Assembly (NCBI GenBank): GCA_032718475.1
Contig: JAUCBJ010005881.1
Span: 9,860-73,859, forward strand
DNA: 64,000 nt
DNA from: Nemertoderma westbladi
Lineage: Eukaryota > Animalia > Xenacoelomorpha
Direction: 5' to 3'
The position numbers were made by a program, and so were the translations under genes. Positions 14,512 through 48,591 of this stretch are shown one piece after another. Within the stretch, counting starts at the first letter, position 1. The number at the start of each line of letters is the position of its first letter. The notes beneath the pieces are model-generated. The model made no database searches and had not been told where the DNA came from. It saw only the letters and a program-made list of their open reading frames with translations.

Positions 14512-15043
14512 TTAGGAGTTTACAAATAGATTTCCACGTACCTGTACACTGTAGTAAAGACAGCGGTAGAATTCCATTGTCTTTATATGTGAACATTGAG
14601 GGTAATACCCTTATGTATCACATAGGAGCGGGATTTGTAGGTATAAGAAATGGAATTATACTTGGAACTCACAATATTGAGACATTTTCGAAACTTTAGA
14701 CAATCCATTTGGATTTGAAAAAATTTTAAAATTTTCTCCAGTGAATAGATTTCAGGGTACAGTCGGGTGGAACTTAAAATTAGAGAAACAAGAGAGGAAG
14801 ACTTGCGAGCCTTTCTTAAAATTTTAATTAAATTTTACACGGTCTTGTTTCAATAAGTTACGTCAAAATAGACTTCCCTATATTTATTACTAATTCTTGA
14901 TTGCTTATTTTCTGATAATAGTTTGGGATCAAAAAGTGAGTATTTTAGACTCACAGCCAGTTTAGCCCAAATTCGTTTTTTATTTCGGCAAAAATTTTAG
15001 ATAAGAAGCAGCGTGTCATTAAAGAAACCCTAGATCTTAGGCT

Positions 15044-16666
15044 ATGGGTAGGAGGTTAGAGCGTTGTCGAGCCAAAAAAGGCAGACGAAAACTCTCACGT
15101 CTCCTCACAACTAACTACAAACTCTGTTGTAATCCCTCTAGTAGTAATGATTATGTAACTACACCTCTAATTATGGAGAGGATGCGTGTATTGGGCTATT
15201 ACGTCACCTCCAAGAGCGGTCTTACAATATTATTTAGCAATAGAGTCGTCAGTGAATGTTTGCTTAATAACAAACGTATCGTGGAGATTACGGATGAATC
15301 ACGGCAGACGCGCGCACCTATCGGTCACCTTGGTGATGATTTCGAAGTAACGACTACGATCACTGACGATCCTTTAGAGGAACTTCTTGAGATAGAAAGG
15401 AACCTCCCGAAGAAATCTCAGACGGAGATTCGACAACTTGAAGCAACAGATGCTATAGTTTGTATACAACCTTCAGAAACCTACCAACCCATAGATCCAG
15501 ATGATTATGATTATAGTGTGGGAGGAAGCGCTCGACCAATTGGAGATCTTATATAAGAACGAGTGTGGTACCCTGCCAATACGATGTGTGGTAAATGTGG
15601 CGTCGCTGGACATCATTCGACCAAGTGCAGTGGAAAGCACATTACTACGACTCAACTAATCTGTGGATGGTGTGGAGATCAAGGGTCTCATACCTTTTAT
15701 ACTTGCTGGAGATTTATGGCTCAATGTACTTATTGCAATATAAAAGGGCATCGAGCATCTGAATGCCAACTAAGAGACATACCCTATGAACACGAATCTG
15801 TAAAACTCGTGAGAAAACTATTCGATGAGTGGGAAGATTTAGCCGACGAACACGTATCGGCACAAAGAAGACGATTTCCGATGAGGGCGCATCTTGGATT
15901 TTGGGCGGTAAATCCCCAAACGATGATGTCGGAAGGATACATCTCCGCTATGCCCCAATATGACGAACTTATCGAGGTAGTCGATATTTTGCCTCACGAC
16001 AGTCGATTCCGAGTAGTGCGTGAGTATCTATTACAGATTCACCCAGACAACAAGAACACGTGGAATTTTCAGAAAGTCGTAAATCGTATCACGTATGGTG
16101 AATTTGATCGTTTTCGAACTGAAAAGCGGAATAAAGGAGCTTGGTTAACCGTCGCATGGGCGTACCGAGCCGCGTTTTACCACAAACGTATACGAGCGAG
16201 CGTATTCGAGGAAGAGGAGATCCTAGAGGCGACAAATATACCAGCCACTCCGGTTGCGCCGTCTGCACGTCACACTCGGGAGGACGGGCAGGGTAGGATC
16301 ATAAGGGTCCAGAAAGTTAGCCAACAATTAAAGAAGTCTATTAATATAGAAGAACGCAAGGGAGTTGAGCCGACCATTCGAATTACTCGGGATACGGTAT
16401 CGCTTCCTAGAGAACCAACAGGAGGATCGGGACATACACCAGCTGATCAAAAGGGGGCGCAAGCTACTCTTGGGTCTGTGTCGTCCGCTTCCCGCGCATT
16501 CCCAGACGTTTTACCAACTGTAGTGACAACTGATCGGTCACGAGGAATCGGTCGAGGTTTTGGGATGCCAAATAGACGAATTTGCGAGGAAATAGTCGCA
16601 CCGTCTCCCAACGTCCAAACGAAACCAGTGACTCGCCCCACGAGTCCCATATCGCGAGCAAAGTGA
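15044..16666 (+). pseudogene. Accessory ORF of element 1, triple zinc-knuckle protein with one in-frame TAA (15554-15556)
   Basis: ORFs 15044-15556 and 15563-16666 share a frame; CGKCGVAGHHSTKC, CGWCGDQGSHTFYTC, CTYCNIKGHRASEC; start codon uncertain. Confidence 0.75.
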
Positions 16667-19410: not shown

Positions 19411-19428
19411 GAGATAGATAACTAAACG
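19411..19428. repeat. 18-bp remnant of the 34-bp satellite between the two retrotransposons
   Basis: GAGATAGATAACTAAACG matches monomer variants seen near 4451 and 4824 and contains both inner TSD copies. Confidence 0.9.
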
Positions 19429-20608
19429 TGTAAAGGCTTTTGCGGAATTAGCCGGTTATTTTCCCGGTAAAGTACTCTGTAGTTGGTTTAACAGGCATAA
19501 AAGGCCGTGTCCTTACTGTACTGGTGTTTTAGAGGACATAAAAGTCATTTCTTCTGTATGTGTACTTTAGCGGACATAATTCGCAATTTTATGACGCAAT
19601 GCGCCAAATCCTCTGTAAACAGTGTAGCTACCATGACGACGGCTAACAGCTGATGCTGTACACGTGGAGCCTTTTCTTTGTTCTCTGTTCCTTCTTTGTT
19701 CGGTCGACCAATCAGAGTGTTTTTGCCTCTGTGTTAGAGATTGTATATAGAAACTCGTGGAGTTGAGTCAGTATGTGATTTTGTCCACAGCCTACAACAC
19801 AGGCTTTGGAACCTCCGTGTTTCAGTCTTTAGCCCAACATTAGTAGGCTTAATTATAGAACGTATATCTGTTATCAATCCAAACTCAATAATCATAACTT
19901 ACTCACTCACTCATAACTTAACAAACCATTCATAACTTAACATTTTACTGCTTTTACTGTCGGTTATTCATTATATTTGTTGATGGAATATTATATTTGG
20001 AATACTGATAAATAATCAGACACCCCAATCTTCTTGATATACTAAAGGTTAGAGAGACCGGTTACATATAACGATTGCGACTTACATTAAGTGGTTTGAA
20101 GTGAATCTAATGCTATTTTATAGGCCCTACATGTATTGTCTGTTGTTCTCCTTATATGTGACTAAAATTAATGAAGGTCGGCAGATCAGTGTGCAGCATT
20201 GTGCAGTATTGTGTATGATTGTGATTGATAACAAAGCATCTCCTAAAGAATGCGCCATATACGTGAATCTATAGCCATTCCGTTGTGTCTAGTTTAAGTC
20301 ATAACTCTGTTTATATATTTAAAGCGCCACGTCCTAAAGGAACTGTTAATATTTCCCGAAAGTGAATAATATTTGTCAGAGATTATATATATTACGATCA
20401 GTCGAATAATACAGTAGGCCTACCCCGCAATACGGTTAGGCTTCCGAATCCAGTCTCCCGGGTATATCCAGCGGGTGAATGATCGCGCATAGACTGGCTT
20501 CGGCTAATGTAGTGTATCAAATACTTGTCATAGGCTAAAGATGATCTATCATCTAAAAGACATCCCAATTTGGCAGGTTAAACTGCTAAAGGTCTGAAAA
20601 CGCGAACA
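19429..20608 (+). repeat. 5' LTR of element 2 (1180 bp)
   Basis: Matches 36861-38040 with about 11 substitutions counted by eye. Confidence 0.96.
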
Positions 20609-20890
20609 ATAACAGATATACCTTCTGTATTGCAGTAGGCAATAACGCTGAAGTACCGGACAACCGGTACCTAGTAGGCCTGACTACCTAACCACCCGGA
20701 CCGGTACCTACAGCAGTACAGGTACATCAGTATTATTCGATTGTGAAATTGTATACCGGTAGGCTGTTTAAGAGATTAGGGACTGTACACCCCTTGTTTC
20801 TTTTGGAGCTTACTTATTTCTGTCAGTTTTATTTATTTGTAGGCCAGTATTGAGCAGAAGGCGTGTAAGCCTGCTCAGATTGTACAGACA

Positions 20891-22791: not shown

Positions 22792-25700
22792 ATGTCCGAC
22801 ACAAAGCAAAACCTGTCAGATAGTCTCCTAGATACAACCATATGTGACCCAGACAGGAGTGTGGAACGTGTAGGACCGAAGTTCAACTCACCTCCTACTG
22901 TAAGAAAGATCATCCCTCCCGTAGTAATATCAGACCCTAGGCTAGTCCAACATCGTAGGTCTATCATAGGCACTTGGGCTCAGGTCAAGCGGGACCGAGA
23001 AGCAGCAGAACAGCAACAACCCGTGAGCCAATAACTTATTTCTCAGCGGCCCGACAGCTCCAGTAGTGCGGATACTGTAGAGCTGACACCCGAACACGGC
23101 GCAAAGATGACAGATGTGGTTTATTCGGACCCCCTTCTCATCCTTCCTGCAGCCGTACTCACTAGGTTATTGATTGCGGTGGAAGAACACCAGATCGATT
23201 GGGCGAGAAATAAGCGATAAACTAAAGATAGTTATGCGGGATACACAAGGGAAGAACTGAAGTCTATTGTCGAGTCGCAATGGAACTTCCCCGGACCCGG
23301 ACTCCCGTTTGATTTATCAGAAGCTGCCTGGGAAGACATACACAGGATGGGAGTAACCAAGGAAACCATCGATCCAGCTGTGTGGAAGAGGTCCGCAGCC
23401 GGATACGTACAGGGATTCTTCAGCTCCATGGAGCGATTAGAAGAACAACTGTTTCAACAACCCCAAGGACCTCAAGAGCAGGGACAGCTGCTTTATCAAG
23501 TTAGAGAAAGAATTCTACGAATCAGGCTAATCTTATCGGCCTTTGAAGAGGCTTCTAAAAGAAGACAAGACACGTCGTTGCAAGTTGCCGTAAAGACTTG
23601 GTTTCAACGGGTGAGTCTCCAGGTGCAAGGAACGGCTCAGTGGAAAGCCCAGCTGGATGAGCGCTCAACCCATGGAGAATCAACAGATGCTACTTTTTCC
23701 CAAGTGGAAAGTGAAGCGACGGCAGAGAAACCGCATAAGAGGAATGCCATTGACATCTATCTGTCAGACTATCAACGTTTTTTAGGTGATGAAGAGTTGA
23801 GGAGAAGGCTAGATGGACTTAGCCCTAATAGTGAAGGAACCCAGCGTGTGTTGGACGCCATCGATGTGGATATGAGAGCTGCGAACCAAGCTAGATTTGA
23901 TGAATGCCTCCGCATCACTAGAGTCCAAGAAGAACAAGTGAAGAAAAAACGTATAGAAGACAGAAAGACAGCGGCAGTGGCAGCAGCAGTGGCAGCGGCA
24001 GAAGCAGAAAGAAAAGCGGCAGTGGCAGCGGCAGAGGCAGAGGCAGAAGCGGAAAGAAAAGCGGCAGAGGCAGAGGCAGAAGTGGAAAGAAAAGTGGCAG
24101 CGGCAGCGGCCGAAGCGGAAAGAAAGGCGGCTATGACAGCGGCAGAGGCAGTAGCAGAAGCAGAACGGAGAGCTTCCGAAGAAACCACCCAATTAGAATT
24201 GGAAAACATTCAGGAGAATCAAGACTGCATAAATAAACAGTTAACAGCTAGTAATATGCAGATGATGAGTCGATCTACTCCCAAAAGACAGGGATATACA
24301 TCATCTGAGGAAGGCGATACCACCGATACTGAAGGCGGAGGAAATAGATCTCGTCTAAGCAGATGTAAAAGAACATCCCACCGTCAGAAATTGCCTGATT
24401 TGCCCCCAGCTGTTAGAAGGCAACTAAATAACACAAACTTAGGTAGTACAGAACCCACAGACCAAATAATTAAAATAGAAAGACTCCCTACTATAATAGA
24501 TGAGCCTGAAATAATTAGGCCTGTTCCCAAAGCCACCCTTTCGGTGATAGAGACACCTGTACTCCCTGAACCTACCTCTAAATTCCCTCTGCACAGCACT
24601 AAGCTATCTGTGCCCCACAGAACCACCCTTGAAAATGTTCATGTCCTGGACTCCGAGCGAAATATTCATGATTTGTCGCCCGTTGTCCCTCATCCGCCCG
24701 CTACAACGTTGGCGCCTCCCGCTTCGGCGGTCGAGTGGGTAGATGAGGGACGACGGGAGATGGGTCTCCTGCTCGGACAGCTGAGGGAACAACATTCTCG
24801 CTCCTCTCAGCAGGCCCAGGAGATGGAGGGAACTGTGCAGCAGTTAAAGGGAACGATTAGAGAGAGTAGGTTAGAGTTGCAAGAAGTGCAGCAAAGTATC
24901 GCGTTAGAACGCGATAAATTAGTAAATACACAAAAGGGTATACCACCAACCCCGGTAACAATGTGTCAACCTGTTAGGTCTGAAGTATTTCATGCGCAAG
25001 GTGTGGAGCCTACACACATATATACTGCTAGCGAAGTAGAAACTCCTATAGTGAACCCTATTAAGGGTAATTATAGACCTGTTGATAATGATATTCCCTA
25101 TAGACCTGATCATAATCCGAGAAATTTATATACCGATAACTCGATATTAAATAACACGATGGCCCAAGAAAGTTTTACGCGTCAAATGGCTAGAACCGAA
25201 GTCCGTCAAGCGGTAAAGGTGGGAGAGATAGTCAAGTTCAATGGAGAGGTCAATGGAGAGGAGATGAAATGGTTACCTTTTAATGAATATTATAAAGATA
25301 ACATACAGAACTCTGTACTATCTAATGGGGAGAAACTTAGATTCCTCATCGAGTGATTGGAAGGATCTCCCAAGTTAATGGCGTTAAAGTTTATTGGACA
25401 TCCAGACGGATTAAGACAAGTTTGGGATACACTAAACATCAGGTATGGTAATAGGAATAACATAGCTAAATATTTGTATGCAAAATTAGTAGCGCCCCGA
25501 AAGTTCATTAGCAGCGGGATAATAGAGTTTTCCGATGAGATTCAAGAGATCTGTAGACAATTAGATTGGTTAGGTAAGTCTCATGAATATCAGAGTTCTA
25601 TGGTTATTGGAGCCGTGGCTTCTACTTTACCGAAGGGTGGAGTAGGTACACGCTGGGATAAGAAAGTGTTATATATGATGGAACAACAACGACGAGACCC

Positions 25701-28700
25701 TACCATGGCTGATCTCATGTCATTCTTAGATGGAGAAGTGAAATTACAGCTTCTAAAACAGTCCAGAGAGAAGACACCGGAAAACAAGGTAAGTGAGAAA
25801 CCCGTTTCTAGGAGAAAGGTAACACCAGTGTGTTATACAGACGACTGCGAAAGCCAAACTTCTCAAGGAGAGGATAGCGGGAAAGACACTGAAAGATCTT
25901 ATTATGTCAATAAAATGCCTAAAGAACAGGTAAGTAAATTCAAGTCTCGAACCAATGACAGGAGAGAACAGGTAAGAAAAACTCCTCCTACGTCTCCTAA
26001 GAGAATTCAGGTGAGAAAGCCGAAGAAAGAACGAGTGTGCACAATGTTATTCAAAATAAGGTAAGTAACATCAAACCGAAATGTGCGCTATGTGACGGGA
26101 CCCACCGTTTGAATATGTGTGATGAATTCCTGAAGAAATCATTAACGGAGAGACGGGAAGTCATGTGGGATAAGCGGTTGTGTTATAATTGCCTCAGACA
26201 AGGACACCAACGGCGAACCTGTTACTCCGACACAAGGTGTGCAAAGTGCGGTGCGAAACATCATATCTTGTTGCACACTGAATTTGAGCGAAACAGCCAG
26301 AGTCAGGTAAGTGATTCCGAACTACATGTCCAATTCAGTGATGTGAACGACACTGACCAAAGTTCTGAGATGGAAGGATTCTATACAGATGAATTCTCCG
26401 ACGAAGGTGAATCCTGTTACATGATAAATACCGCAGTGTATCGAGCACTTACGTATGAAAAAGACACAGACAGCGACCTCACCCTAACTACTTCTGATCG
26501 ACGACCATCTTGGAAAGCGCCACCTTACAATGTAGGAATCCGAGAATTTCCTGTAGTACAGGTAAGGGTCCACGGACCTAAAAGGAGTTATGTAGTGAAC
26601 GCCCTCCTTGACTCCGGTAGTACAGGAACATTCATAGAAAAAGAACTAGCTGAAGACATCTTTGCTGGACAACCCAAGTTCAGAACTAAGCTAAACATGT
26701 CAGGAATTATGCAGGTTTGGAAATCTACAGTAATAGCGGATTATTATGTAGGTGCGTTGTCCACCCCCCAGGATGAACTAGGAGAACATAGTATAAGGTC
26801 CGTAAAAATGGTGGCGATAAAGAACTTCGCTACCACCCAAGTGGAACCTTATAACTGGGATGAGGACGATTTCACCCAGCAGCTGGAAATACCTAGATTC
26901 AACACCGATTACCCTGGAGTGCAAATACTCATCGGTCAAAACGCGCATGAAGCGCTCGAGACATTGGAGAAACGGCCCGCTCAACCGCAACCACTACAAG
27001 CTTATGCGGGAAGAACTAGAGTGGGTTGGTACTTTACTGGCCCTTCCCGTAGAACTCTCATGGAAAGATTACCGAAAGACCAGGTATATCAAGTAAGAGA
27101 ATGGGAAGTCGAGGGCAGTGAGTTAGACGATCCAACTGAGGGAACACCATACTCCTCAGATAATGACGATGTCCACCAACTTTTCGATGAGGAGAATACC
27201 ATCGATCTCCTTGAGGAAAACGAGACTTGGCAAAACCAAGGGAACTTATGTCAGCTCCTTCTTCCATCAGAACGAGACGACTATAACGACGAGCTTAATG
27301 ACGTCATTGAACGTTGTAATGCCAAGACTCGGGATGAACACGCCGTACGATTCTTTACTCAAGAGGCTGTAGAGCCCAATTCCTACGACAAGGCCCTATC
27401 GGTAGAGGAAGAAAGAGCCAAGCAGATCCAAGAGACAACTACACGTTTTCTTAAAGATCAAGGTAGATATGAGATCGGTCTACCTTTCCGAAAGCGAGAA
27501 CCAAAGTTCGTAAACAACAGACCCTTGGCGGAGAAAAGAATTGCTCAACTACATCGACGCCTTACGGCAAATTCTTCAGCTAAAGAAATGTATCAAACGC
27601 AGTTGGAGAAATTTATTAGTAAGGGATATGTGGAGCTAGTACCGGAAGAAACACTTATAACTGAGAGAACGTATTATTTAACTCACCATTACGTTCCCAA
27701 ACCCGGTAAACCCCATGAGGTACGAGTGGTGTTTGACGGCTCCGCCCTCTATATGGGCCAATCCCTTAATTCTGAATTGTTACCCGGACTCAACTTACTC
27801 CAATCCTTGTTGGGAATACTCTTAAGATTAAGACAATATTCAATCGCTTTCGCCTCAGATATAGAAGGCATGTTCTTACAAGTCAAGGCGCTGGATAGGG
27901 ATCGAGATAGCCTACGATTTCTGTGGTGGCCTGAAGGAGACCTCAACCAGAAACCGGTGGAGTACTGGATGACCATCCAGGCTTTTGGGATAATCTCAAG
28001 CCCTTCAAACGCCTGTTCAGTGGTGCGTACCACTGCGGATGACAACCGAGATGCCTTCTCTAAAGAGGTGATTGACAACATCAAGCGGGATATATACATG
28101 GATGACAATCTAAAGTCCCTTCCATCAGTCGAAGAAGCCATTGATGTCGCTAAAGGAACGGTAGAGTGCTTAAAAATAGGTGGATTTCGATTAACTAAAT
28201 TCACCAGCAACTCCCGTGAGTTTCTGGAGTCGATCCCGGTAGAAGATCGAGGAGCGAAAGACCTGGATCTAATAAAAGATGATCTCCCAGAAACTAAGAC
28301 CCTTGGTTTGAAATGGGACACAGAAAGAGATATCCTGTTTTTCCAACTAAAACAGCGAGATAATCCAGTTCGGACTAAACGTATTTGTTTAAGTATCCTG
28401 AGCACTTATTTCGATCCATTGGGATTTATTAGCCCAGTTATATTGATTGCTCGGAGTTTAGTACAACAAATGTGGCTTGAAAACCACTCATGGGACGATC
28501 CACTTAAGGGAGAATTGTTAAAGAAGTGGATGAAATGGGAAGATTCTCTACCAGCCATCGAGAACTTTATAATTTCCCGTTCATATTTTGGTCATGTTCT
28601 CCCTACGTATTCCTATCAACTCCATGTGTTTGGAGACGCCAGCAATATCGGAATAGGTATAGTAGCCTACCTAAGGGTGGAAACTCCGGACGGAATCAAA

Positions 28701-30998
28701 GTTGCCTTGGTTACCTCTAAGGCATTAATAAACAATAAGTTGAAAGTTCCTCGAGCGGATTTAAAAGCGGCTCTATACGCTACAGCCATCGGCCGGAATG
28801 TAACAGAACAGATCGACTATCCACTGGAGAAAACTGTCTATTGGACCGACGCTTTGCTCGTGTTGGAGTATATAACCAATGAAGTCTGTCAGTTCAGCGT
28901 CTTCGTTACCAACAGAGTAGCCATTATACTCAGTCGCACAACGATGGATCAATGGAGACATTGCCCCGGAACGATTAATCCAGCAGACATCGCTTCCAGG
29001 GGAGCAACTCCACAAGAACTGGTTGATACTCCAGACTGGCTAGGTGGACCCGACTTCCTCTACAAAGAAGAAGAAGAATGGCCTCCTCATCTTACTACCA
29101 CAGAGATTAGACAAGCCAAGGGAGTGGAGAAAGTCAAACCTAAAACTCAGGCGAGTAAATCGAAGTTATTCAAACCTATGGTAGATCTGTCTGTACTACA
29201 TACTTCCGGAGACGACGCCTTGGATCAGAAACCCACAGCCACAAATAAACTTGTTGTGGAAATCCGTGAGAAGGATTGGACATCTGGAATACCAGACGCC
29301 TCGCAAGGACTCTCACCTCTCCTGCAGAGAGCGATACATCACTACAGTTCCTGGAATCGGCTCTGTAAGGCCGTTACATATTTAAAAAGATGTTTTCACC
29401 ATCACTACTCCGGGATGAAGACCAAAAGTGATACCGCTCCAATAACATCGGTGCAGGTCCATGTTATTAAAGATCTTCCCAAATATAAGATATCCGACAG
29501 GTTTCTGAAGGAGAAGATCAGTTATCAGGAGCATGAAGAAACCAACAAGCAGATGCTGAGACTCCTGCAATGCTATGAGGATTCCGATAAGTATTTCCTG
29601 TTGTTGAGAAATCCGCAGATGCACTTAAGGGATCGTTTCTCTAGCACAATGATAGATGGGTTGATACGTGTTGGAGGAAGATTAACGAATGCTCCATTAT
29701 CCTTTGACACTAAGTTTCCCATACTCATTAGAAATCTTGAAATACAAGTCAAGATGATTGTAGACGTTCACAGCAAACTTTATCATGCTGGTAGGGAATG
29801 AGTTCTTAGCGAAATTCGAACTTGCTATTATTTTTATAAACCCCGTAGAGCTCTGAACCAAGTTCTTAGGAACTGCATACCCTGTAGGAAAGCATTCAGT
29901 AGGCCTTTAACACAGCGAGAGGCAGAATTACCTAGGGAACGAGTAAGCTTCTATGAACCACCCTTTACTAATACCGGTGTGGATTTATTTGGCCCTATTG
30001 AAGTATATCGTGCTAGGACTATAGTCAAGAGATGGTGTGTCATCTTTGTTTGTATGACTTGTAGAGCTATCCATCTCGACAGGGTGAACGATTTATCTAC
30101 CAACAGCTTTCTATTAAGCTTACGACGACAGATCGCTCGCTTTGGCACTAGTAACACGATGAGATCTGATAAGGGAACAAACTTCATTGGTGCCAACAAT
30201 GAAATCAAAGCTTACGTCAAAGATTGGAACCAAAGACAGGTGGACGATCAGCTACGAGTAACAGCGTCTAGCTGGACCTTCAACGCCGCCGACGCCCCTT
30301 GGTGGGGAGGAAGTTGGGAGAGATTAATAAGAAGTGTGAAAACCGCATTTCACTTTATAGTGCCGTGCCGCGCGTATCTCACCGACGAACTTTTGCGGAC
30401 GTTAATGGAGGAAATCGCCGCCTATCTCAACGAGAGACCGCTTATGCCAGTCTCATCGAGTCCCGATTCCCTGGAAGCGCTAACACCCGCGCATTTCCTA
30501 CTGAAGAAACCTGTAGCCATGCTCCCACAATCGGAAATCACAGACGGAGACGAATACTGCCGGCAAACTTGGCAACTCATGCAGTTGTTATCCCGTCGTT
30601 TCGCTGACCATTTCGAAAAACATTATCTGCCCACGCTACAACTTCGAACTAAGTGGTTTGCGCAGCAAGAAAACGTCAGCGCTGGAGACATGGTTCTTAT
30701 TGTGGATGTAGATCTTCCACGTAAGCGGTGGCAGACAGGTCGTATCATCGAGACTCACATCTCGGATGACGGTTTGGTGCGATCGGTAGAACTCGTCGTC
30801 ATGCGACGTAACTTCAAGAAACCGGGAATTGTCTTCGAGACACAGCAGCTCAATCGCCCAGTTGGTCGCTTATGTTTACTGGAAAGGGACAGAGAACTCT
30901 CCGGAAACTATGGGAGGCAAGATACTCTTCCCACGACCACCTCCCTAATCCAACAAACATCTAGGGACTATAAATTTTATTATAATCGTTTTCTTTAA
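22792..30998 (+). pseudogene. BEL/Pao gag-pol (Gag, PR, RT, RNase H, IN) disrupted by four stops and one frameshift
   Basis: Knuckles CYNCLRQGHQRRTC; PR ALLDSGSTGTFI; RT ASDIEGMFLQV and YMDD; RH LHVFGDAS, YWTD, NPADIASRG; IN TGVDLFGP, SDKGTNF, GGSWERLIRSVK; stops at 23032, 23218, 25354, 29799; frameshift near 26040. Confidence 0.93.
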
Positions 30999-32551
30999 TT
31001 TTACTTAGTAGAACGTTATTTTAGCGATTATTTAGTAGATTAGTGCAATATATATTCGGGTTTATTACTTAATTACTTATATATTATATATTTAGTGCGA
31101 CGGCGAGAAATAATTATTTTTCTCTTTCCTTACTGTCCGTATTACATTACAAATACGTAATTACAGTAAGATGAAATGTCCGTACTTATTAAAGTACAAT
31201 AAAGCTCCTACTATATTCAAGTATTATTGGTAAAGTAGAGTATTAGGAATGCAAAATTCAGATCCTCGTGTCTCGGCTAAACCAAGCTCTGGGTAGACCT
31301 TGGAAACGACTTGCCTCTTCTCACTGACATTGCTTCGTGCGATATTGCTCTCATACCGTATAGTAAATAATACATATAGTAGCGTGATGTCCTTTTAACA
31401 GTAGCGTATAACGCAAAATAAATCTGTTAAACCCTTTGACCATCTGTAATTCTAGTCGATTAAGATATCGCGGCACCCACCGATATACTTGAAAGACAAA
31501 TTCTAGAATCAGTGGTTAACGTCCCCAGACAAGTTCTGGAATAAACTGGTGCCCATCCTAAATATTAATTATTAATATTTATAAAATCTGTCGAAATTGT
31601 AGATCCTTTAAAATTCTAGTCGATTAAGATATCGTAGCACTTACCGATACTCTTAAAAGGTCAAAATTCCTAGAATCAAGGATCCCAGTCCCCAGACACG
31701 TTCTGGAATAAAATTGTGTCTATTTAACATTAAATAATAAAATTTACGGGAATAAATTTAAATTCATATATTTCAATGAATTTAATAAATTGTCATTTTA
31801 TACAATTTATAACATTCCCAAAATTCCATTAATTAATAGATCATGGGAGCGGAGATTCACTCTATTAAGTGTATTTGTGTGCGAGAATCTCCAATATATA
31901 GTCAATAGCCGATAAAATTCATAAAATCATATATAGAGAGGATATTGACAATTAAAGAATTACTATTAAATAGCATCCCAGATCTGTATGCATGAGAATT
32001 ACCCTAATTCTACCGCTAGCTTTCCATAATGTCACCATGGCAACAACCACGCTAGAATTAGAAGTGAGTTAAAAGAACAATAAAGGCTTGCCCCATTGAA
32101 TAGCATAAGGAATAAAATAGCACATTGCTAGTATCCCAGGATACCCAATAATAACGTGGCATTCTGGAAGGCACTGACTAAAGGACAAATGGCCCGAATA
32201 TGTGCGGTTTGTGACAGTTGTGTGGAATTTGTGCGTTTATAGGTGAATGTTACTACTAAAGTGTGTTTACAGTAGCGAGTCGCAATTGTGAAAGTAGCCC
32301 TAACTCTCCAGTAAGAACCTGAAGTATATCTAAGCCTTTGGGACGGACGGTGGAGTGACTCGTGCTGGTTGTTGTGGTCGTTGTGCAGCTACGACGTTGG
32401 CGATAGGCACATCGGCGAAAGTACACCAGCGCTGAAGATCTTACACTGTCCGGGGGCAAAAGAGGGGTAGGCAGCGACGCCCGCTAGCCTAATATATAAA
32501 CTCATTATAATATTGATAAACTCATAGCAGATATGACTGAGTTGATAGAAG

Positions 32552-35500
32552 ATGATCTTGGTATCAGGGAGCGATACTCTACCTTTACAAGCGTTTGTCG
32601 ATAGCTTGATACGCGGCGACGCTGGTCCAACTACTACGGAGGATGATGGTCATTATATCGAACCACCAATGTCCCCGGAGCAACTTACGCGTGAATTGGA
32701 TTATAGAAAGTTCACCGCTCGCTATACGCATCGTAATGGTACGTATATGGACTTCTTAACTACTGGCCATCCTATCGATTTACACGATACGGACGACGTA
32801 GACACCGAAAGGGAAATGGTTTTATTTAAATATCATACCCAGCGGAGTCGGAACGATAAACCGAGAATAGAACACGAGAACTCTATTCGAAACAGACTCG
32901 AAAGGGAAGACGTTGAAGAGCCGGATAAACGCAGCGACTTCAACGATTATCTGGAATTCCTGAGAGAGACATACCTCAATATTGCCAGTCAACAAAATCT
33001 CGAAACTCGATATCCTCAAGGTATACATCATGACCCTATGATAGAACTCAAACGACTCTCTTTCACTATGATGTATCTCACCGCCGATCGACCGCTACCT
33101 GTCGTCCCAGATAGCTTCGAACAGATGGAGGAATATTGTAAAACTGGAGAACGATCACCCGCGTTTCCCCTGCAGGACGTGCGTCTTTGGTATTACTGCG
33201 ACGAGTGCCCTAGACCCAATCAGCAAACGGAAAGACATAAACATCCGCGGAGACGTTGCGCTAAACACAGTTTTACACGATATACTTATGGGAGTTTCGA
33301 GCGAAACCTGTTCGACGTATCCCCTACGGTTGCTCGACTCAAACGATCCTTGAACAAACCAATGATCAGAGTTCCGGAATACTCGGTCAGACCTCCTCAT
33401 TCCTCAGTTAGACCTCAGACTCTTGATCCTAATAGTATCACGGATCCTCCCGAACTGTATTCGCTGTTCAAAGATCTAGTGTTACCCGAACAGTTGATCG
33501 GTGGCACTCCGGTAGTAGGCTCACTAGATATTCGCCAACCCTACCTAACTGGATTGGGACGCGGTCATCTAATATCGCCGTTTAACCCACACAACCGTCC
33601 CGGCTTCACCTCGATACAACCCGTTACGGAAGTCGAAGAGAGCGTCGTACGAAATGCGTTAGACGCTATTCGGCAGAAAATTGGAAAGGGAACTTACGAT
33701 TGTTTGGAGAAACGTAAATTGCAACAACAAGTCCAAGCGGTGAAGGAATTAGCTTTACCCCAGTTCGAAAGAGAAATACAAAATCTCGAGGAGGACATCG
33801 AATGTGGACGAACCCACTCTTTACAAGAGTTCCTAGATGAGCGTCTACAACAACAAGCGGATGAAAATCAGCTCGAGGAGAGACATATAGAAATGGATGA
33901 GAGAGAAGAAGCAGCTTTAGCTCAACCCGAAGCTCAAATCCTTATGACGGATCTCTACTCTAAAACCATCCTTCATCCCTCGATGGTTCCCAATTTTGGA
34001 GACAAACTCTTTGCGACGGTACAACCCCAACCGGTTGATATCAACCTAAGATCTCGAGATCTTATCGCTGACGCTCCCATGTTGCAACGTCCGCCCATCG
34101 AAGCCGCTCGTGTCGATGGTATACTCGTTGAACCTCCGGACAATAGAGTGGATCTTGTCCGTCGCATGGTACACGATGTAAACATACGCGCTAGACCTTT
34201 ACCGGACTCGTTTTATGGGATCAAAGATCACCCTTATTACGTCAACCTAACACAATATTACATGGTAAAACCGGAAGATCCTACACATAGTCTGAGGTTT
34301 CTGCCTCTCATAAATCCTCTCGATCTTGTCGAACTCGAACAACTGCATAAACATCTGGATCAGTTAGTTAAGATAAACTCATTTCGAAAACCATACAATG
34401 TTTCCAGAATAGAGAAAGAAACAATACCTCCGTATAATCTTGATGGATTCATCAAAACTCGTTTAGTACACTGGAATCTTGACGTGTTATTCGAGGAAGA
34501 AAGAATACAACGATATGGAGATGTGGAAACATATACCACACAATATTTAAAGTATAGAGACCTACCTAATGCTAGCGAATGCGCTACCTTGTGGCATCCT
34601 GTGGGAATGACCCTCGAAAACGCCACTAAAGAGTGGAATGAGACTCTTAACGTTATCGAGATGTATGGAGTTGTCACCTACGACAACGAAGGTAGCGTTC
34701 CGGTTGGAGAACTGGGAACTACGCGGATGATACACATATGAGGACTCGCTGGTTCTGCCCACGTATTTACTCGAGCGTGTTCCGATGTGATTGATTATTC
34801 TTTTGAAACTCTTACTGAGACACAAAGAGACTCCGACATGGACAATTCGAGCTCGCGCAGCGTTACGTCGCCGACACCAAGCGCAAACCGGCCATGGGTA
34901 TCGATGGATCGATGTTACCCCAGCCCGTGCTCGAGATGTTGTTTAACGAAAGAATCCTTAAAATCGGCTCAGCTGTTTATGGAGATCTACAAAACGACTT
35001 TCGGAATATGGAGAACATTCCATACCCTTTCGTGGATACTCAGCTGATTGCTCCCTGGGCAGAAGGCCGAGGTTTCTTCTGCACTATGTATGCCAATACA
35101 CCCAGCGGCATTACTAAAGTACAACGAACCTCCATCGGACATCTTGCCTTTCAAGAATACGGATGGAATTTCAAGGTTGGAAATCCTAAAAATTACCAAC
35201 AAGTATATGGAGATCATTATTCTCGTTTATACTTTGATGGACCATTGACCGCACCTGGCGCCGTGTATAGCTTTATGAGTGTTCCACTTCGTCCCTCCTT
35301 AGCTATATACACGATCTTTGAAAACGCAGCACTTGCCGGTTGGCTAGCCGATGTGTGCAGTCGTACCATACGCGCCCATCCCTTAATACTTGGAACCAAA
35401 CTCGCCAAGTTAGATGAACACAATAAATTCATCCGCTTCGAATGTTTCAGGCGCTTTCTGACTCCGTTCCATAACGTTGATAGTCAGTTCAAGGACCGCG

Positions 35501-36537
35501 CTCTGACCAAACTCAGCCTAAGAGACTCAGCTGCGGAGAAGCTAAACAGCGCGGGATTTGCCCTCTTTCAGGACGTTTGTATACAGAACTTACATTCATC
35601 TGTTATACAAAGACCCCGAATACCCACGGGTTATTCTGTCGTGGAAGTTCAGACAGTGGGTCCGCTTGCGGAGACAGCCGCACCTACCTCAGCTATGCAA
35701 TTGGAAGACGAACCAATCTGCTTAGAGTCTGAAGCGATCCAGCCTACAGCGCCCCGGAGCAGCGATAACGATTACGTCTTGGAGTGGTATCAAGGTCCAC
35801 AATGTCTCACCGCATACGATTATCGACACGCCAACTATGTTTCTCGAAAACGTTGCCGATTATGCGCATCGAGAGACCATTTCACCCCTATGGACTCAGA
35901 CGTACCCTGCTCCTATTTCCACGAACAACCGATGATGGAGATCTATTGTGCGTATTGCAGACTTAATAACTCGCATATTTTTGCAGTCTGCCCCCAATTT
36001 ATGACCCAATGCCACCACTGTCAACTTAAAGGACATGCCAGTTATAATTGCCCCTTTAACCGCGATTTAGAAAGCGTAGATGAGATGATTACCCTGCGCT
36101 ACATCCGAGCTTGGGAAGCGAACGCGGATTTACATTGTGAGTCACGCCATCGCTACTACCCTGGACGCTCTTACGAGGGAGTTTACGCATTCCATCCTTA
36201 TTTATTCGCGTCTGTGGAACAAAAAACACGCACACCGAGTTACGAACTAATGAAGCGTGTTGGTGAGTGTATTTCAACCAAATTTGTTCGAAAATATCTT
36301 AGGAACGTCAATCCTAACGATATTACTTCATATCATTTGATCAATTTCATCCGTCAAGACCCTGAGTATGGCGATTTATTTATCAACTCGCACCCTGAGT
36401 TACAGGAAGTATCTCGACGGCCCTACGAATATCGAGCCCGAGAACGCGAGCTGGAAAGAACCATTAAACCAAGAAGTTTCTCACCACTCACGGTCCGCCT
36501 ACCGCCATTGTCCAGACGACCCGTCAAGGACCCGTAG
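32552..36537 (+). pseudogene. Accessory ORF of element 2: unknown N-terminal region, DEDDy 3'-5' exonuclease-like domain, triple zinc knuckle (stop at 34739, frameshift ~34820)
   Basis: VVTYDNEG (ExoI-like), LPQPVLEMLFNERILKIGSAVYGDL (ExoII-like), FVDTQ, PLRPSLAIYTIFE (ExoIII-like); CAYCRLNNSHIFAVC, CHHCQLKGHASYNC. Confidence 0.7.
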
Positions 36538-36860: not shown

Positions 36861-38040
36861 TGTAAAGGCTTTTGCGGAATTAGCCGGTTATTTTCCTGGT
36901 AAAGTACTCTGTAGTTGGTTTAACAGGCATAAAAGGCCGTGTCCTTACTGTACTGGTGTTTTAGAGGACATAAAAGTCATTTCTTCTTTATGTGTACTTT
37001 AGCGGACATAATTCGCAATTTTATGACGCAATGCGCCAAATTCTCTGTAAACAGTGTAGCTACCATGACGACGGCTAACAGCTGATGCTGTACACGTGGA
37101 GCCTTTTCTTTGTTCTCTGTTCCTTCTTTGTTCGGTCAACCAATCAGAGCGTTTTTGCCTCTGTGTTAGAGATTGTATATAGAAACTCGTGGAGTTGAGT
37201 CAGTATGTGATTTTGTCCACAGCCTACAACACCGGCTTTGGAACCTCCGTGTTTCAGTCTTTAGCCCAACATTAGTAGGCTTAATTATAGAACGTATATC
37301 TGTTATCAATCCAAACTCAATAATCATAACTTACTCACTCACTCATAACTTAACAAACCATTCATAACTTAACATTTTACTGCTTTTACTGTCGGTTATT
37401 CATTATATTTGTTGATGGAATATTATATTTGGAATACTGATAAATAATCAGACACCCCAATCTTCTTGATATACTAAAGGTTAGTGAGACCGGTTACATA
37501 TAACGATTGCGACTTACATTAAGTGGTTTGAAGTGAATCTAATGCTATTTTATAGGCCCTACATGTATTGTCTGTTGTTCTCCTTATATGTGACTAAAAT
37601 TAATGAAGGTCGGCAGATCAGTGTGTAGCATTGTGCAGTATTGTGTATGATTGTGATTGATAACAAAGCATCTCCTAAAGAATGCGCCATATACGTGAAT
37701 CTATAGCCATCCCGTTGTGTCTAGTTTAAGTCATAACTCTGTTTATATATTTAAAGCGCCACGTCCTAAAGGAACTGTTAATATTTCCCGAAAGTGAATA
37801 ATATTTGTCAGAGATTATATATATTACGATCAGTCGAATAATACAGTAGGCCTACCCCGCAATACGGTTAGGCTTCCGAATCCAGTCTCCCGGGTATATC
37901 CAGCGGGTGAATGATCGCGCATAGACTGGCTTCGGCTAATGTAGTGTATCAAATACTTGTCATAGGCTAAAGACGATCTATCATCTAAAAGACATCCCAA
38001 TTTGGCAGGTTAAACTGCTAAAGGTCTGAAAGCGCGAACA
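36861..38040 (+). repeat. 3' LTR of element 2
   Basis: Direct repeat of 19429-20608, preceded by PPT-like CTGGGTGCGG. Confidence 0.96.
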
Positions 38041-38458
38041 AAACGTTTACATAACGACTGTGGGATAGTTAACTAAACGTTTACATAACGGCTGTGAGAT
38101 AGTTAACTAAACGTTTACATAACGGCTGTGGGATAGTTAACTAAACGTTTACATAACGGCTGTGAGATTGTTAACTAAACTATTACATAACGGCTGTGAG
38201 ATAGTTAACTAAACGTTTACATAACGGCTGTGGGATAGTTAAATAAACGTTTACATAACGGCTGTGAGATAGATAACTAAACGTTTACATAACGGCTGTG
38301 GGATAGTTAACTAAACGTTTACATAACGGCTGTGGGATAGTTAACTAAACGTTTACATAACGGCTGTGAGATTGTTAACTAAACTATTACATAACGGCTG
38401 TGAGATAGTTAACTAAACGTTTACATAACGGCTGTGGGATAGTTAACTAAACTAAACG
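38041..38458. repeat. Satellite, 34-bp unit, right arm
   Basis: About 12 copies resuming in register after the TSD. Confidence 0.95.
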
Positions 38459-38556
38459 TCTGAACCAGCGTAAGGCCCAACTTTGTCCCAGTGGTTAAAT
38501 CCGTTGCTTAGATTTCACATCTCTCCGGCTGGGTTCGATCCAAGCATGAGTTTTCG

Positions 38557-40595
38557 GTCCAACATCCAACTTGGTTCCGTCCCACATCCAACTTGGATCC
38601 GTCCAACAGCCAACTTGGATCCGTCCAACATCCAACTTGGATCCGTCCAACAGCCAACTTGGATCCGTCCAACAGCCAACTTGGATCCGTCCAACAGCCA
38701 ACTCGGATCCGTCCAACATCCAACTTGGATACGCCCAACAGCCAACTTGGATCCGTCCAACATCCAACTTGGATCCGTCCAACATCCAGCTTGGATCCGT
38801 CCCACATCCAACTTGGATCCGTCCAAAATCCAACTCGGATCCGTCCAACATCCAACTTGGATACGTCCAACAGCCAACTTGGATCCGTCCAACAGCCAAC
38901 TTGGATCCGTCCAACAGCCAACTTGGATCCGTCCAACAGCCAACTTCGATCCGCCCAACATCCAACTTGGATCCGTCCAACATCCAACTTGGATCCGTCC
39001 AACATCCAACTTGGATCCGTCCCACATCCAACTTGGATCCGTCCAACATCCAACTTGGATCCGTCCAACATCCAGCTTGGATCCGTCCAACATCCAACTT
39101 GGATACGTCCAACAGCCAACTTGGATCCGTCCAACAGCCAACTTGGCTCCGTCCAACATCCAACTTGGATCCGTCCAACAGCCAACTTGGATCCGTCCAA
39201 CAGCCAACTTGGATCCGTCCAACAGCCAACTTCGATCCGTCCAACATCCAACTTGGATCCGTCCAACATCCAACTTGGATCCGTCCAACAGCCAACTTGG
39301 ATCCGTCCAACAGCCAACTTGGATCCGTCCAACATCCAACTTGGATCCGTCCAACAGCCAACTTGGATCCGTCCAACAGCCAACTTGGATCCGTCCAACA
39401 GCCAACTTGGATCCGTCCAACAGCCAACTTGGATCCGTCCAACATCCAACTTGGATCCGTCCAACAGCCAACTTGGATCCGTCCAACAGCCAACTTGGAT
39501 CCGTCCAACAGCCAACTTCGATCCGTCCAACATCCAACTTGGATCCGTCCAACATCCAACTTGGATCCGTCCAACATCCAACTTGGATCCGTCCCACATC
39601 CAACTTGGATCCGTCCAACATCCAACTTGGATCCGTCCAACAGCCAACTTGGATCCGTCCAACAGCCAACTTGGATCCGTCCAACAGCCAACTTCGATCC
39701 GTCCAGCATCCAACTTGGATCCGTCCAACATCCAACTTGGATCCGTCCCACATCCAACTTGGATCCGTCCAACATCCAGCTTGGATCCGTCCAACATCCA
39801 ACTTGGATACGTCCAACAGCCAACTTGGATCCGTCCAACAGCCAACTTGGATCCGTCCAACAGCCAACTTGGATCCGTCCAACATCCAACTTGGATCCGT
39901 CCAACAGCCAACTTGGATCCGTCCAACAGCCAACTTCGATCCGTCCAACATCCAACTTGGATCCGTCCAACATCCAACTTGGATCCGTCCCACATCCAAC
40001 TTGGATCCGTCCAACATCCAACTTGGATCCGTCCAACATCCAACTTGGATCCGTCCCACATCCAACTTGGATCCGTCCCACATCCAACTTGGATCCGTCC
40101 AAAATCCAACTCGGATCCGTCAAACATCCAACTTGGATACGTCCAACAGCCAACTTGGATACGTCCAACATCCAACTTGGATCCGTCCAACAGCCAACTT
40201 GGATCCGTCCAACATCCAACTTGGATACGTCCAACATCCAACTTGGATCCGTCCCACATCCAACTTGGATCCGTCCCACATCCAACTTGGATCCGTCCAA
40301 AATCCAACTCGGATCCGTCCAACATCCAACTTGGATACGTCCAACAGCCAACTTGGATCCGTCCAACATCCAACTTGGATCCGTCCAACAGCCACCTTGG
40401 ATCCGTCCAACATCCAACTTGGATCCGTCCCACATCCAACTTGGATCCGTCCAAAATCCAACTCGGATCCGTCCAACATCCTACTTGGATACGTCCAACA
40501 GCCAACTTGGATCCGTCCAACATCCAACTTGAATCCGTCCAACAGCCAACTTGGATCCGTCCAACATCCAACTTGGATCCGTCCCACATCCAACT
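38557..40595. repeat. Satellite, 22-bp unit (CCAACTTGGATCCGTCCAACA[T/G]), left arm
   Basis: About 92 tandem copies; consensus is stop-free in all six frames. Confidence 0.97.
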
Positions 40596-42304
40596 CACAG
40601 TGGGGCTTAACTTGGTTTTTGGCAAAGGTTGGACCCCGTTCATGAAAATAAGTTTTTTGAGCTTAGTTGGTCCCCTAATGTAAAAATTCACAAAAATTAA
40701 AATATTTCATGGGTGGCTTTTTATATTAATACTATTTAAGTAATTATTTAATACTAATCATATTACTAAATTTCATCACTTACTCCCCCAAACATATTGA
40801 CAGGTTTATTTTGCTCCATTGGTGTCACATTGTACAAAAAATAAAAAAATTTAAAATTTCATGGGTGGCTTTTAATATAATTAATATATAATAGTTAATA
40901 ATAATAATTAATATTAATATTAATAAATATTAAAATTAAATATTAATAAATATATAATAATAATTAATTATTTATTTAATACTAAATATTATTACCTTTA
41001 ACAAAGGATGTTACCCCATTCCTGAAAACACGTTTTTTGGCTCTAATCATGTCTCGATGAATAAAATATAAAAAATTAGAAAGTTTCATGGGTGGCTTTT
41101 AATATAAATGCTATTTAATTATTTATTTAATACTAAATATTATTACCTTTAACTAAGGATGTTTGTTACCCCATCCCATACATGAAAAAAGTTTGTTTGG
41201 CTCCAAGCATGTCTTGGTGAATAAAATATAAAACATTAGAAAGTTTCATGGGTGGCTTTTAATATAAATGCTATTTAATTATTTATTTAATGCTAAATAT
41301 TATTACATTTAACAAAGGATGATTGGTACTCTTTCCCATACATTAAAACTAGTTTTTTGGCTTCAAGCAGGCCTTGATGAATAAAATATAAAAAATTAGA
41401 AAGTTTCCAGGGGGGCGTTTAATATTACAATTATTTTATTATTCAATTAATACTAAATATTATTACTTATATATATTTATATGTATAACGAACCTTTTAC
41501 GCCCATTGAATAATGTAAAAACGGTTTACATATGCAGTGGCGATTTCGTTCCCAAATATATATTGACGTTCTGTACTCATTCGAAGATACTTTGTAAAGC
41601 GCATGAAAATAATGAGTGTATACAGTAGCGTTTTCGTCAAGAAAAAATTCGTCAAAACTTACGATCTTTTAAAAAAACACAGTATGTTAGTTTTATACAG
41701 TATAATTATGTAACAAAAATTGTTAAGTGTAGGTAAACTTTACTGACTTTCAAGTACTGTACAAGTAGAGTAGTTGTATTGAGTAGGATATCAGCCTACT
41801 GTATATACAGTAGTGCAAAACTACTGTAGGCCTACTATACATTCCGATTATTCTGTGTTTCTGTTTATTTATTATTTAATTATTAATTCACAACCAAGTT
41901 TGATATATTTTGTTTTATAAAAACCCTATATCACTATATAACCTGACAATTTCAAATGGGAAGGGGGGGGGGGGGGATATACGCAAGAAATATTTAACCT
42001 ACTTCAAGGGAAAATCGATGCGCAAATACCACCAACCAGCAAGAATGAAACGGGAACTTACGATATAAACTCTCATGTCACTCAGTTTCCCCTTTCTTCA
42101 CACATTTATTCCCCTTGTAAGCTTAATCCGTGCTTTGTTAGCGTTAGGTAAACATGCGAACATTGAACATACAATTTAATTTCAGACGTTAATAAAATTA
42201 TGTTTTGACGACCAACAAGTTACATTACATACTGTTGTAGGCCTATGTAAAAAAACGATGATACGTAAACATTGATACGTAAACAATGATACGTAAGTCA
42301 ATCG

Positions 42305-45846: not shown

Positions 45847-48591
45847 TAAAACATTGTCGCCAAAGTTCCATACACTGATGTGTATCTGAATTCTGACGTA
45901 TGTACCTAATGTTTTACAAGTCTGCTTTGAAATATCGTAAAAGTTTACATAATAATCCCCCCAATTACAGAAAATTGGCGGGAACGTTTGAAACTCTCAT
46001 AACTTTAAAGCCGTTTTTCTCAAAACTTTGTTAATATTTGGTCATTAGACTACTAATTTTCAAAACTCAATATCTTTATCGGATTTGAAATCTGTTTTCA
46101 GTGTTCGATTCAGCATAAAAATGTGTATTTGAATCAATAAAAAAACACAAAATTATTTTTTGTAACCGTAGGTCGGATTCTTGATCAAACCCCACATTTT
46201 TAGATAATTAGTCATTATTATCATATGTAATAAATCACACAAGAATTTGCACCACAGGTTTCTTGGACGTATTTTTAACTTGTATATTTATTTTTTATAC
46301 AACAGACGTGTTTCATCAGTACTAATTAGTAATTACATAATTTGTTACATTATTCATTCTTGCTGTATATATTGCATATAATGGCGAATTAATGCTATTA
46401 ACTTTTGACGCATTTGCAACTATATATATATATATTTCATGTGTATGATAAAAAGGCATATATGTTACATACATATATCGCATCATTTTACTACAATTCA
46501 ACATTATTTTGGTGATAGCATTAACTAATGTTTCCTTTATTAAATGAGAATAAAATATTTAAAACAAAAATAATATCTAAAAGTATTAGTTAGTTAGTTT
46601 ATTTATGATGATCTTAATCTGATGATTGTAATCTGAACACTGTATATTGTATAATTCATAGCCCCATAATAAAAATAAATTGGCATCATATCAGTTCATT
46701 ATTACCAGCATTAATTCAACACAGTGGCGATCCACTTAGACTATTTACTATATCTAATGGAAACTACCCATTTACAAGCGAGTTTATCAAAAGTGAAGCA
46801 GTTTAGCACAGAAAAAGCTTTCTTCGTGGTGGATTAAGTAATTTTATGTTCATTGGTACTTTGCACTGGTTGAACAAAAAAATAGTGTGTGACATCTGAC
46901 TTTAGACCTAAAATACACTGAGAGCGCCACTAAGGCGTAATCGTTACAAGTAGTCAATACGCCCAGATATCCATGATAACGCCCTTGTTACATTTCCCAA
47001 AATCGTTAAAACGCCGTTATACATAACCATTTATGTCGAATTCGCTACGTGTTACATCTATATTTATATATAGTATATAAGCTCATTGTTTATACAATGA
47101 AGGACTAGCGTAGATCAGCAGTTGGAAGATATGGACCAGTCCACAATCTTCATAAAAAATCCCATATTTTCAAACATTTTATCTATAATCTACGTATTTA
47201 TTTACTTTTTTTTATTAATATAATTCCTCAACTGGTGGTCAGCAACATTGTATCAATAATCATTGTGTCTTACCTACAACTGTACTGAGTCGTTGTAGGT
47301 AATAAGACACAATGTGTACTCTCTCTATATAATTGTTTATTTATATTACCAATCAAACCAACCGAACCAACCATATATTAGTAGAACATCAGTAGGTATA
47401 ATCTTTCACATTATTCACGCATGGATGCACACACCTCCTACACTACATTATAATATAAAATAACAGCTACATTAGTTCATGATTGTCCTTAGTCTTGGGT
47501 ATAGATATACAGTATGCTTCAGTTTAAGGCATATTTTTCATTCATTCATTTTTAAGTGGTTCTTAAGTTAAATATAAAATACATTTAAGAACATCGATCT
47601 TATTATAAATTTATAAAACATCATAAACTATTTAATTTTATTTCTTACTTAATCTTACACACTGCAGATAATGGTGCGCCATTATCTGATATACCTTTCA
47701 TGTATACATGTATATAGTCTAATGTTGTTAGTGGACTGAAATGTTTATTTCGTTCCTGAAAAATGCCACATCATTCTAAGATTGGGTTAATTTTCTGAAC
47801 AAGCAACATTTTCTTGAAAAACATGGTCGAAGTATAAAGTTTTAGAAAGTCATCCAAGATACGCAAATTAGCTACTTCAAGCAGTTAAGGAATATAATTC
47901 GAAACATGTATGAACTATTTTTGGTTTTTAATGGAGTATACAGTATATCAAAATAATTACATATATTTAGTATTAACTGGATAAATAAATAGTTGTATTA
48001 TTAAAAATTACCAATGAAACTTTCTAATTTTTTGTATTATAATCATCAAGATATGCTTGGAGCCAAAAAAACTTGTTTTCATGAATGGGATAGGGTACCA
48101 AACATCCTTTGTTAAAGGTAATAATATTTAGTATTAAATAAATAATTAAATATAATTTATATTAAAAGCCACCCATGAAACTTTCTAATTTTTTATATTT
48201 TATTCATCGAGACATGATTAGAGCAAAATAACTTGTTTTCATGAATGGGGTAACATCCTTTGTTAAAGGTAATAATATTTAGTATTAAATAAATAATTAA
48301 ATAGCATTATATTAAAAGCCACCCATGAAATTTTAAATTTTTTTATTTTGTGTACAATGTGACACCAATGGAGCAAAATAAATCTGTCAATTTGTTTGGG
48401 GGAGTAAGTGTTGAAATTTAGTAATATGATTAGTATTAAATAATTACTTAAATAGTATTAATTTAAAAAGCCACCCATGAAATATTTTAATTTTCGTCAA
48501 TTTTTACATTAGGGGACCAACTAAGCTCAAAAAACTTATTTTCATGAACGGGGTCCAACCTTTGCCAAAAACCAAGTTAAGCCCCACTGTG

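Follow-up and report, generated by a model that had tools for sequence, protein, structure and literature searches.

Accessory genes for DEDDy exonucleases are already known from other mobile element classes than the one studied here. In bdelloid rotifers, third open reading frames (ORF3s) of this kind are described in Juno, Vesta and Athena/Terminon elements (available sections of PMC5408684, PMC6431247 and PMC5718144). According to those sections of PMC5408684, the long terminal repeat (LTR) elements of rotifers acquired DEDDy genes at least twice, and the unrelated Athena elements did so too. The function of these genes has been a matter of prediction since their description, and no selection on the rotifer ORF3s was detected. 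DEDD nucleases also occur in the DNA transposons Dada (DEDDy) and KolobokD (DEDDh) (PMC3706591, PMC9587614, both as partial texts), and in the cellular enzyme TbRND, the RNase D of trypanosomes, CCHC fingers bind RNA and raise nuclease trimming (PMC7797062, available part; PDB 7C42-7C4C). For BEL/Pao retrotransposons, only env-like third genes are mentioned in the family profile of the International Committee on Taxonomy of Viruses (ICTV; PMC8742986) and in the available part of a survey (PMC3118150), where the word "exonuclease" has 0 occurrences. Here we describe ORF3 of an 18.6-kb BEL/Pao element of Nemertoderma westbladi. The window is a stretch of 64,000 nucleotides (positions 9,860 to 73,859 of contig JAUCBJ010005881.1, assembly GCA_032718475.1); all coordinates refer to it, and the genes and element parts described lie on its forward strand. 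ORF3 appears to be an inherited third gene of its BEL/Pao family, broken in this copy, and its product would be a predicted 3'-5' exonuclease joined to three zinc knuckles.

As far as the available rotifer texts go, ORF3 resembles the Juno/Vesta and Athena genes in being an RNase D-like DEDDy third gene in the env position, with no transmembrane segment and with a function that is predicted in both cases. It differs, in a comparison by description only, in its BEL/Pao host, the three CCHC knuckles, a conserved tail and an N-terminal extension of about 680 residues. The acidic set is D-E-D-E here and DEED in the rotifer ORF3, and variation is strongly synonymous here, whereas rotifer ORF3 variation, where env-like and GDSL-like genes are discussed, is given as mostly neutral (both from the available sections of PMC5408684). 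Like ORF3, TbRND has a DEDDy exonuclease followed by CCHC fingers, and by analogy it may be the closest working model for knuckle-assisted trimming. It was matched separately by the knuckle part of our profile (E 0.04-0.12) and by Foldseek, and no evidence of orthology was found in these comparisons. In contrast to ORF3, which lies in a mobile element and has a long linker and three knuckles, TbRND is described in the available text of PMC7797062 as a cellular mitochondrial enzyme with four fingers beside the nuclease. Dada and KolobokD likewise carry a transposon-borne DnaQ-like nuclease, but they are DNA transposons with the nuclease inside or beside the transposase, and the available texts describe no knuckle module with it. 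The sequence-only reading of the window, on which this analysis builds, knew of no BEL/Pao case, and titles and abstract openings of the full-text literature yielded none, although Repbase, GyDB, subscription journals, figures or supplements may hold one. It had also mentioned DEDDy ORFs in Ty3/gypsy-type elements of rotifers and nematodes; the rotifer part stands, and the word nematode has 0 occurrences in the available sections of PMC5408684.

The exonuclease-like domain of ORF3 and its relatives

ORF3 occupies 32549..36537 (about 1,330 codons) between pol and the 3' LTR, the env position that the sequence-only reading had assigned to it. That reading had the gene at 34660..36160, which covers its 3' half; the gene starts about 2.1 kb further upstream, at 32549, and ends at 36537. 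In this copy a 730-aa frame (32549-34738) is closed by a stop at 34739, and after a frame change near 34820 a 572-aa frame follows (34819-36534). The N-terminal part of about 680 residues (32549..34600) contains one CX2CX9HX6C-like motif and no known domain, with no match in Pfam or PDB. It varies synonymously among copies. Copies are also of unequal length near 32570, and ORF3 may therefore begin slightly further upstream. The exonuclease-like domain follows at 34660..35360, as judged from motifs, profile and structure matches and relatives. Its ExoI acids, D 34682 and E 34688, lie upstream of the stop. Within the 572-aa frame we located LPQPVLEMLF at 34915, FVDTQ at 35029, SIGHLAFQEYG at 35131 and PLRPSLAIYTIFE at 35284. 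The motifs named beforehand, the stop and the knuckles were all found where they had been reported.

The three CCHC zinc knuckles (35854..36051) are supported by alignment and family matches, their 12 Cys/His ligands being invariant in all five aligned sequences. The third has the canonical CX2CX4HX4C spacing, the first reads CX2CX4HX9C and the second CX2CX5HX4C. A match to zf-CCHC_3 was obtained at E 9e-4, and the knuckle profile also matched retroviral nucleocapsid, Lin28 and Air2. Behind the knuckles lies a conserved tail (36052..36220) with an acidic/aromatic helix, an R-x-R and a G-aromatic motif. No transmembrane-like stretch was present (top 19-residue hydropathy 1.14 and 1.19 in the ORF3 pieces; no dedicated signal-peptide tool was run), and Pfam gave no env family match. 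An Env protein was rejected on both grounds, in agreement with what the letters alone had suggested. A nested transposon was rejected as well, on the absence of a transposase and the presence of an ORF3 in the same slot of a neighbouring element.

A phmmer search of 1.84 billion representative proteins returned three matches, P0001 (E 5.6e-7, through the nuclease part) and P0002 and P0003 (through the knuckles). These proteins of 575-648 aa share one layout, an exonuclease-like domain, three CCHC knuckles and the helical tail, and are without the long N-terminal part. P0001 and P0003 show the same motifs in the same order as the window at 24-29% identity, which makes the motifs more than a chance resemblance. 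The aligned window, P0001 and P0003 sequences share ExoI (xxxDxE), the next two strands, LP...KxGS...D (ExoII), a DTQ/EMQ strand, a GLG/SIG helix and PL-x6-Y-x3-D/E. ExoI is D-x-E in these three and D-x-K in P0002, and its strand is predicted at residues 68-73 of P0003. In ExoII, D34984 aligns with an Asp of P0001, P0003 and EXD2. In ExoIII (Y-x3-D) the Tyr is kept, and the last acid is Asp in P0003 and EXD2 and Glu in the window and P0001. One full-length alignment put the window's ExoIII in another register, at PLTAPGAVY; this was rejected, as it is contradicted by the domain-only alignment and by BLASTP of the downstream piece to P0001, which spans ExoII through ExoIII (E 3e-13, pairwise) and so supports the Glu first read from the sequence. 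The upstream piece separately matched ExoI of P0003 (E 0.003-0.009, pairwise), and reading through the broken domain with X did not extend the BLASTP match past the downstream piece. In all, the acidic residues and the ExoIII Tyr are retained in three of the four family proteins; their loss in family copies was one of the two findings named beforehand as fatal to the domain assignment, the other being profile and structure searches that show no DnaQ-like fold, and neither came up, although no confident structural model was obtained.

P0002 (124-2022 of contig L001) has two knuckle-plus-tail modules and degenerate nuclease motifs. Downstream on L001 come a purine tract, then about 1.3 kb that begin with TG, and a further open frame; an ORF3 that precedes an LTR would show such an arrangement. 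A linkage to BEL/Pao was seen only for the two elements of this window. Word-index protein searches, confined to near lengths, gave nothing beyond the query proteins; viral contigs held no relatives and metagenome contigs none of the window protein, and one plasmid match was due to chance.

The domain very probably adopts the DnaQ-like fold predicted from sequence and models, as the reading of a WRN/EXD/RNase D-type DEDDy domain had it. In Atlas, the P0003 domain lay at 0.94 to 3'-5' exonuclease clusters, sharing 182 features; of its 30 matches, 28 fell in the PF01612 set. For the window fragment the top match was PF01612 at 0.76, a lead only. The sole NCBIfam matches of the window fragment were two RNase D models (E 0.003 and 0.013), under the curated cut-off. 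Pfam found no exonuclease in the window fragments and PF01612 at E 0.2 in P0001. Against 177,635 PDB sequences, the three-sequence domain profile gave a single match, EXD2, in which ExoII and ExoIII align in order (E 0.093). Single fragments searched by phmmer produced chance matches or none. The AlphaFold model of P0003 (mean pLDDT 34.7) shows the DnaQ order, in which three strands are followed by helices, strand four and a helix, and a model from the single window sequence had a mean pLDDT of 33. In the structure search that had been proposed as a check, 37 of the best 40 of 150 Foldseek rows (E up to 10) for the P0003 model have the DEDDy fold, while the models are not confident and none of the rows falls under 0.001. 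The DEDDy rows comprise Egalitarian, EXD2, Rrp6, diDNase/NrnC, Exd1, Nibbler, RNase D and WRN; 33 were assigned by title and the other four by what we take to be the identity of the chain. VIA-align of the same model matched only a helical hairpin (residues 244-333, best Z 5.5) and was uninformative on the nuclease. EXD2, WRN-exo, Nibbler (Mut-7), Exd1 and Egalitarian are thereby the main structural neighbours, and PF01612 the Atlas family, with ExoII/ExoIII order and spacing in common; ORF3 differs from them in an identity of about 15% in the Foldseek rows, in scores below every curated cut-off and in the Glu as last acid.

Variation among copies

Four public runs (of nine listed; three from organism A and one from organism B) were compared as contigs; one of them, X1, may be the window's own sample. 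The family is repetitive, with 41,990 contigs of X1 aligning to the region. At the stop (34739), essentially all depth reads otherwise in all four runs. At the frame break, copies of other length occur in all four (10, 5, 2 and 3 contigs); they make up all of the depth in X4 and X5, and 12% and 50% in X1 and X3, two runs in which more contigs end loose at this point. Most other copies lack the stop and the frame break and have one continuous frame there.

For the nuclease region, 40 of 110 difference rows were evaluated, with the stop site left out; differences under 97% of the X1 depth were taken as shared. Of these differences, 33 were shared among copies and six were private to this copy. 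The shared ones fell on third codon positions in 31 cases and were synonymous in 30; by side, 9/10 before the frame break and 22/23 after it were third positions, each in its own frame. All six private differences change a residue. The acidic codons of ExoI and ExoII were hit by none of the 40 rows, and none of these rows reaches ExoIII. Outside the nuclease, 40 of 1,201 rows included nine in ORF3 under the 97% line. Eight of them were synonymous third positions (four in the N-terminal part, four in the knuckles), and the ninth, at 32652, was a second codon position (96% in X1, 98-100% elsewhere). A binomial value of 4e-13 was calculated for the synonymous bias. Linkage between sites makes it too optimistic; the direction of the bias is nevertheless plain. 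As the shared variation is mostly synonymous, the family appears to keep the exonuclease-like domain under clear purifying selection. The predicted DEDDy domain, with this clear signature of selection, is here found in a second LTR superfamily. Contigs with a deletion joining 32898 to 35703, which skips the nuclease and keeps the knuckles, were present in two of the four runs; the other two contained joins that skip both.

Host element, priming and neighbouring element

Based on its domains, the host element is BEL/Pao, as the earlier reading had it. Self-comparison of the window gave a direct repeat pair of 99.07% identity (11 mismatches), the LTRs, each of 1180 bp with TG...CA ends (5' LTR 19429..20608, 3' LTR 36861..38040). 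They are flanked by a 5-bp target-site duplication (19424..19428 and 38041-38045) within a 34-bp satellite, and the paired LTRs and the duplication enclose the third gene. The element contains gag (23221..26064, one stop inside), whose DUF1759 match (E 3e-5) sits barely below the Pfam cut-off, and pol (26001..30998, one stop inside) with knuckles, protease, reverse transcriptase (RT), an RNase H region and integrase (Peptidase_A17 E 3e-35, DUF5641 E 2.5e-20). DUF1759, Peptidase_A17 and DUF5641 between the LTRs identify the 18.6-kb element as BEL/Pao. This copy is damaged in gag, pol and ORF3 alike. A 2.6-kb leader (20609-23220) with internal repeats (20886-21468 and 22413-22676) lies upstream of gag. 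Between pol and ORF3 lies a stretch of about 1.5 kb in which no long sense frame is present. It holds a direct repeat of about 135 bp (77%, 31448-31746), which is possibly regulatory.

Compared with published Belpaoviridae (PMC8742986; PMC3118150, available part), the order Gag-PR-RT-RH-IN, the three family domains, the TG...CA LTRs (1.2 kb here) and the 5-bp duplication are the same. The size is not: the ICTV profile gives 4.2-10 kb (PMC8742986), and the present element is about twice that range. The family is also described as tRNA-primed (PMC8742986), but no TGG-starting site, as typical of the tRNA-Arg/tRNA-Gly site of the ICTV profile, is present beside the LTR; no tRNA set was searched. 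Instead, the primer-binding position (20609..20621) is the perfect complement of 13 nucleotides in the LTR (19862..19874) and abuts the LTR boundary exactly. Such a match is expected by chance at 8e-5, and its duplex energy was reached by none of 30 shuffles. This candidate self-primer resembles the self-priming known for Tf1/sushi, Tcn1 and TAR elements (PMC6317226, available part). The third gene, env-like in the published family, is a nuclease-knuckle gene here. The published description of BEL/Pao is thereby stretched in size and probably in priming too. On contig L001, behind P0002, the stretch 2064-3384 contains a 13-nt inverted match (2931/3191) as well as a TGG site (3162), and the idea that tRNA priming goes with a degenerate nuclease there was rejected for that reason.

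In the same satellite, 18 bp upstream of the first, lies the end of a second BEL/Pao element (4931-19411). Its homologous ORF3 (15041..16666; E 1e-18, 26% over 178 aa) consists of knuckles and tail without the exonuclease part, and tblastn gave no second exonuclease match in the window. Since the nuclease is missing there and is skipped in the deletion contigs, the knuckle-plus-tail module is the constant part of the gene; it would be the core RNA-binding part, with the nuclease as an optional partner. The second element has 1.9-kb LTRs (98.2%), which have TA at start and end and not TG...CA, and a 5-bp duplication. Its open frame of 2295 aa encodes Gag, protease and integrase with no RT or RNase H match, and it is apparently non-autonomous with an intact frame. 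The insertion points of the two elements lie 13 bp from each other within a single unit of the 34-bp satellite (3634-4930, 19411-19428, 38041-38452), which suggests a preference for this satellite.

Substrate and purpose of the nuclease

Our best explanation as a whole, held at somewhat below an even chance, is that ORF3 encodes a knuckle-guided RNase against host small RNAs. The nuclease would take bases off the 3' end of an RNA that is held by the knuckles, and the target would be host small RNAs aimed at the element, or their precursors, whose 3' ends would be chewed back. Catalytic activity is probable, because the catalytic residues are conserved at the low identity of the relatives. RNA is the rather likelier substrate than DNA, with the knuckles holding it by analogy to trypanosome RNase D. 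Counter-silencing takes the largest single share among the purposes, but is possible rather than probable. It is narrowly favoured over a fixed replication step because the nuclease is optional and was gained by unrelated retroelements; a general benefit fits a dispensable nuclease and repeated DEDDy gains better than one priming step does.

Several points weigh against this explanation. In no single search did a window sequence score above the cut-off of a curated exonuclease model (Pfam none; P0001 E 0.2), both AlphaFold models are poor (pLDDT 33 and 35) and the best Foldseek row has E 0.19. Activity may be reduced or abolished by the Glu that the window and P0001 have as their last acid, and the nuclease domain of P0002 is degenerate. 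The selection counts rest on 40 of 110 rows with non-independent linked sites, and the substrate assignment rests on analogy. The 3' methyl group of mature PIWI-interacting RNAs (piRNAs) resists such enzymes. Several Foldseek rows, the top one among them, are proteins that bind without catalysis (Egalitarian, Exd1). EXD1 is stated to be non-catalytic in the available sections of PMC5408684.

Of the alternatives, the one that survives best, although unlikely, is that the nuclease matures the element's own RNA, for example by giving a self-primer its precise 3' terminus once RNase H has cut, or by shortening the genomic RNA at its end. This role and counter-silencing are the two that the sequence-only reading had put forward as possibilities. 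The perfect complement ending exactly at the LTR boundary would suit this role, and the neighbouring element has neither the nuclease nor a clear complement (its best duplex was equalled by 2/30 shuffles); 3'-end processing was also the first suggestion for the rotifer DEDDy ORF3s (PMC5408684, available sections). However, the available part of PMC6317226 describes no gene of this kind for the self-priming Tf1/sushi elements. These elements use RNase H for the cut. The neighbouring element is without RT and RNase H too, so that the correlation comes down to two elements.

Slightly less likely again is an adaptor role comparable to that of Egalitarian or Exd1, in which the domain binds RNA as a pseudo-nuclease or weak enzyme and ORF3 acts mainly as a knuckle-based chaperone, packaging or transport factor. 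Only knuckles and tail occur in all five aligned proteins, the module is duplicated in P0002 where the nuclease has degenerated, and the knuckle-keeping deletion derivatives, the nucleocapsid, Lin28 and Air2 matches and the top Foldseek place of Egalitarian would all agree with such a role. Yet three proteins at 24-29% identity retain the whole set of D, E, D, Y and D/E, which is not expected of a dead enzyme.

That the substrate is DNA, with the nuclease proofreading or end-trimming the complementary DNA of an unusually long element, is improbable. The matches do include EXD2, WRN and diDNases, the Dada and KolobokD nucleases were proposed to process DNA ends (PMC3706591, PMC9587614, available parts) and the element is about twice the family size (PMC8742986), but the CCHC knuckles point to single-stranded RNA, the nuclease lies apart from pol, and the many differences between copies, which were not quantified, give no sign of unusual fidelity. 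A chance or decayed insertion irrelevant to the life cycle of the element, to which the breaks in gag, pol and ORF3 of this copy might point, is hardly credible and already largely refuted by the synonymous bias, by breaks that most copies do not share, by the ORF3 that the second, distantly related BEL/Pao element has in the corresponding place and by P0002, behind which a purine tract and non-coding sequence beginning with TG follow directly as well.

The small-RNA explanation has a wider form, in which a giant self-priming BEL/Pao lineage and other animal LTR elements would share the module as an active, RNA-selective anti-silencing nuclease that suppresses the piRNA/small interfering RNA defence. 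We regard this form as speculative and unlikely. If true, the host's own class of small-RNA trimming enzyme would have been turned against the host; to our knowledge, suppressors of small-RNA silencing are scarcely known from animal retrotransposons. With intact natural relatives (575-650 aa) and natural nuclease-less versions, substrate and purpose are directly testable.

Elsewhere in the window, tandem arrays of 22-bp units, which have open frames on either strand, lie at 38554-40595 and 48592-49340, and their AT-rich flanks are inverted relative to each other (about 40600-41470 and 47960-48590). RT-like fragments of non-LTR retrotransposons, recognized by eye only, are present at 50558-52057 and 59974-62718, one on each strand.

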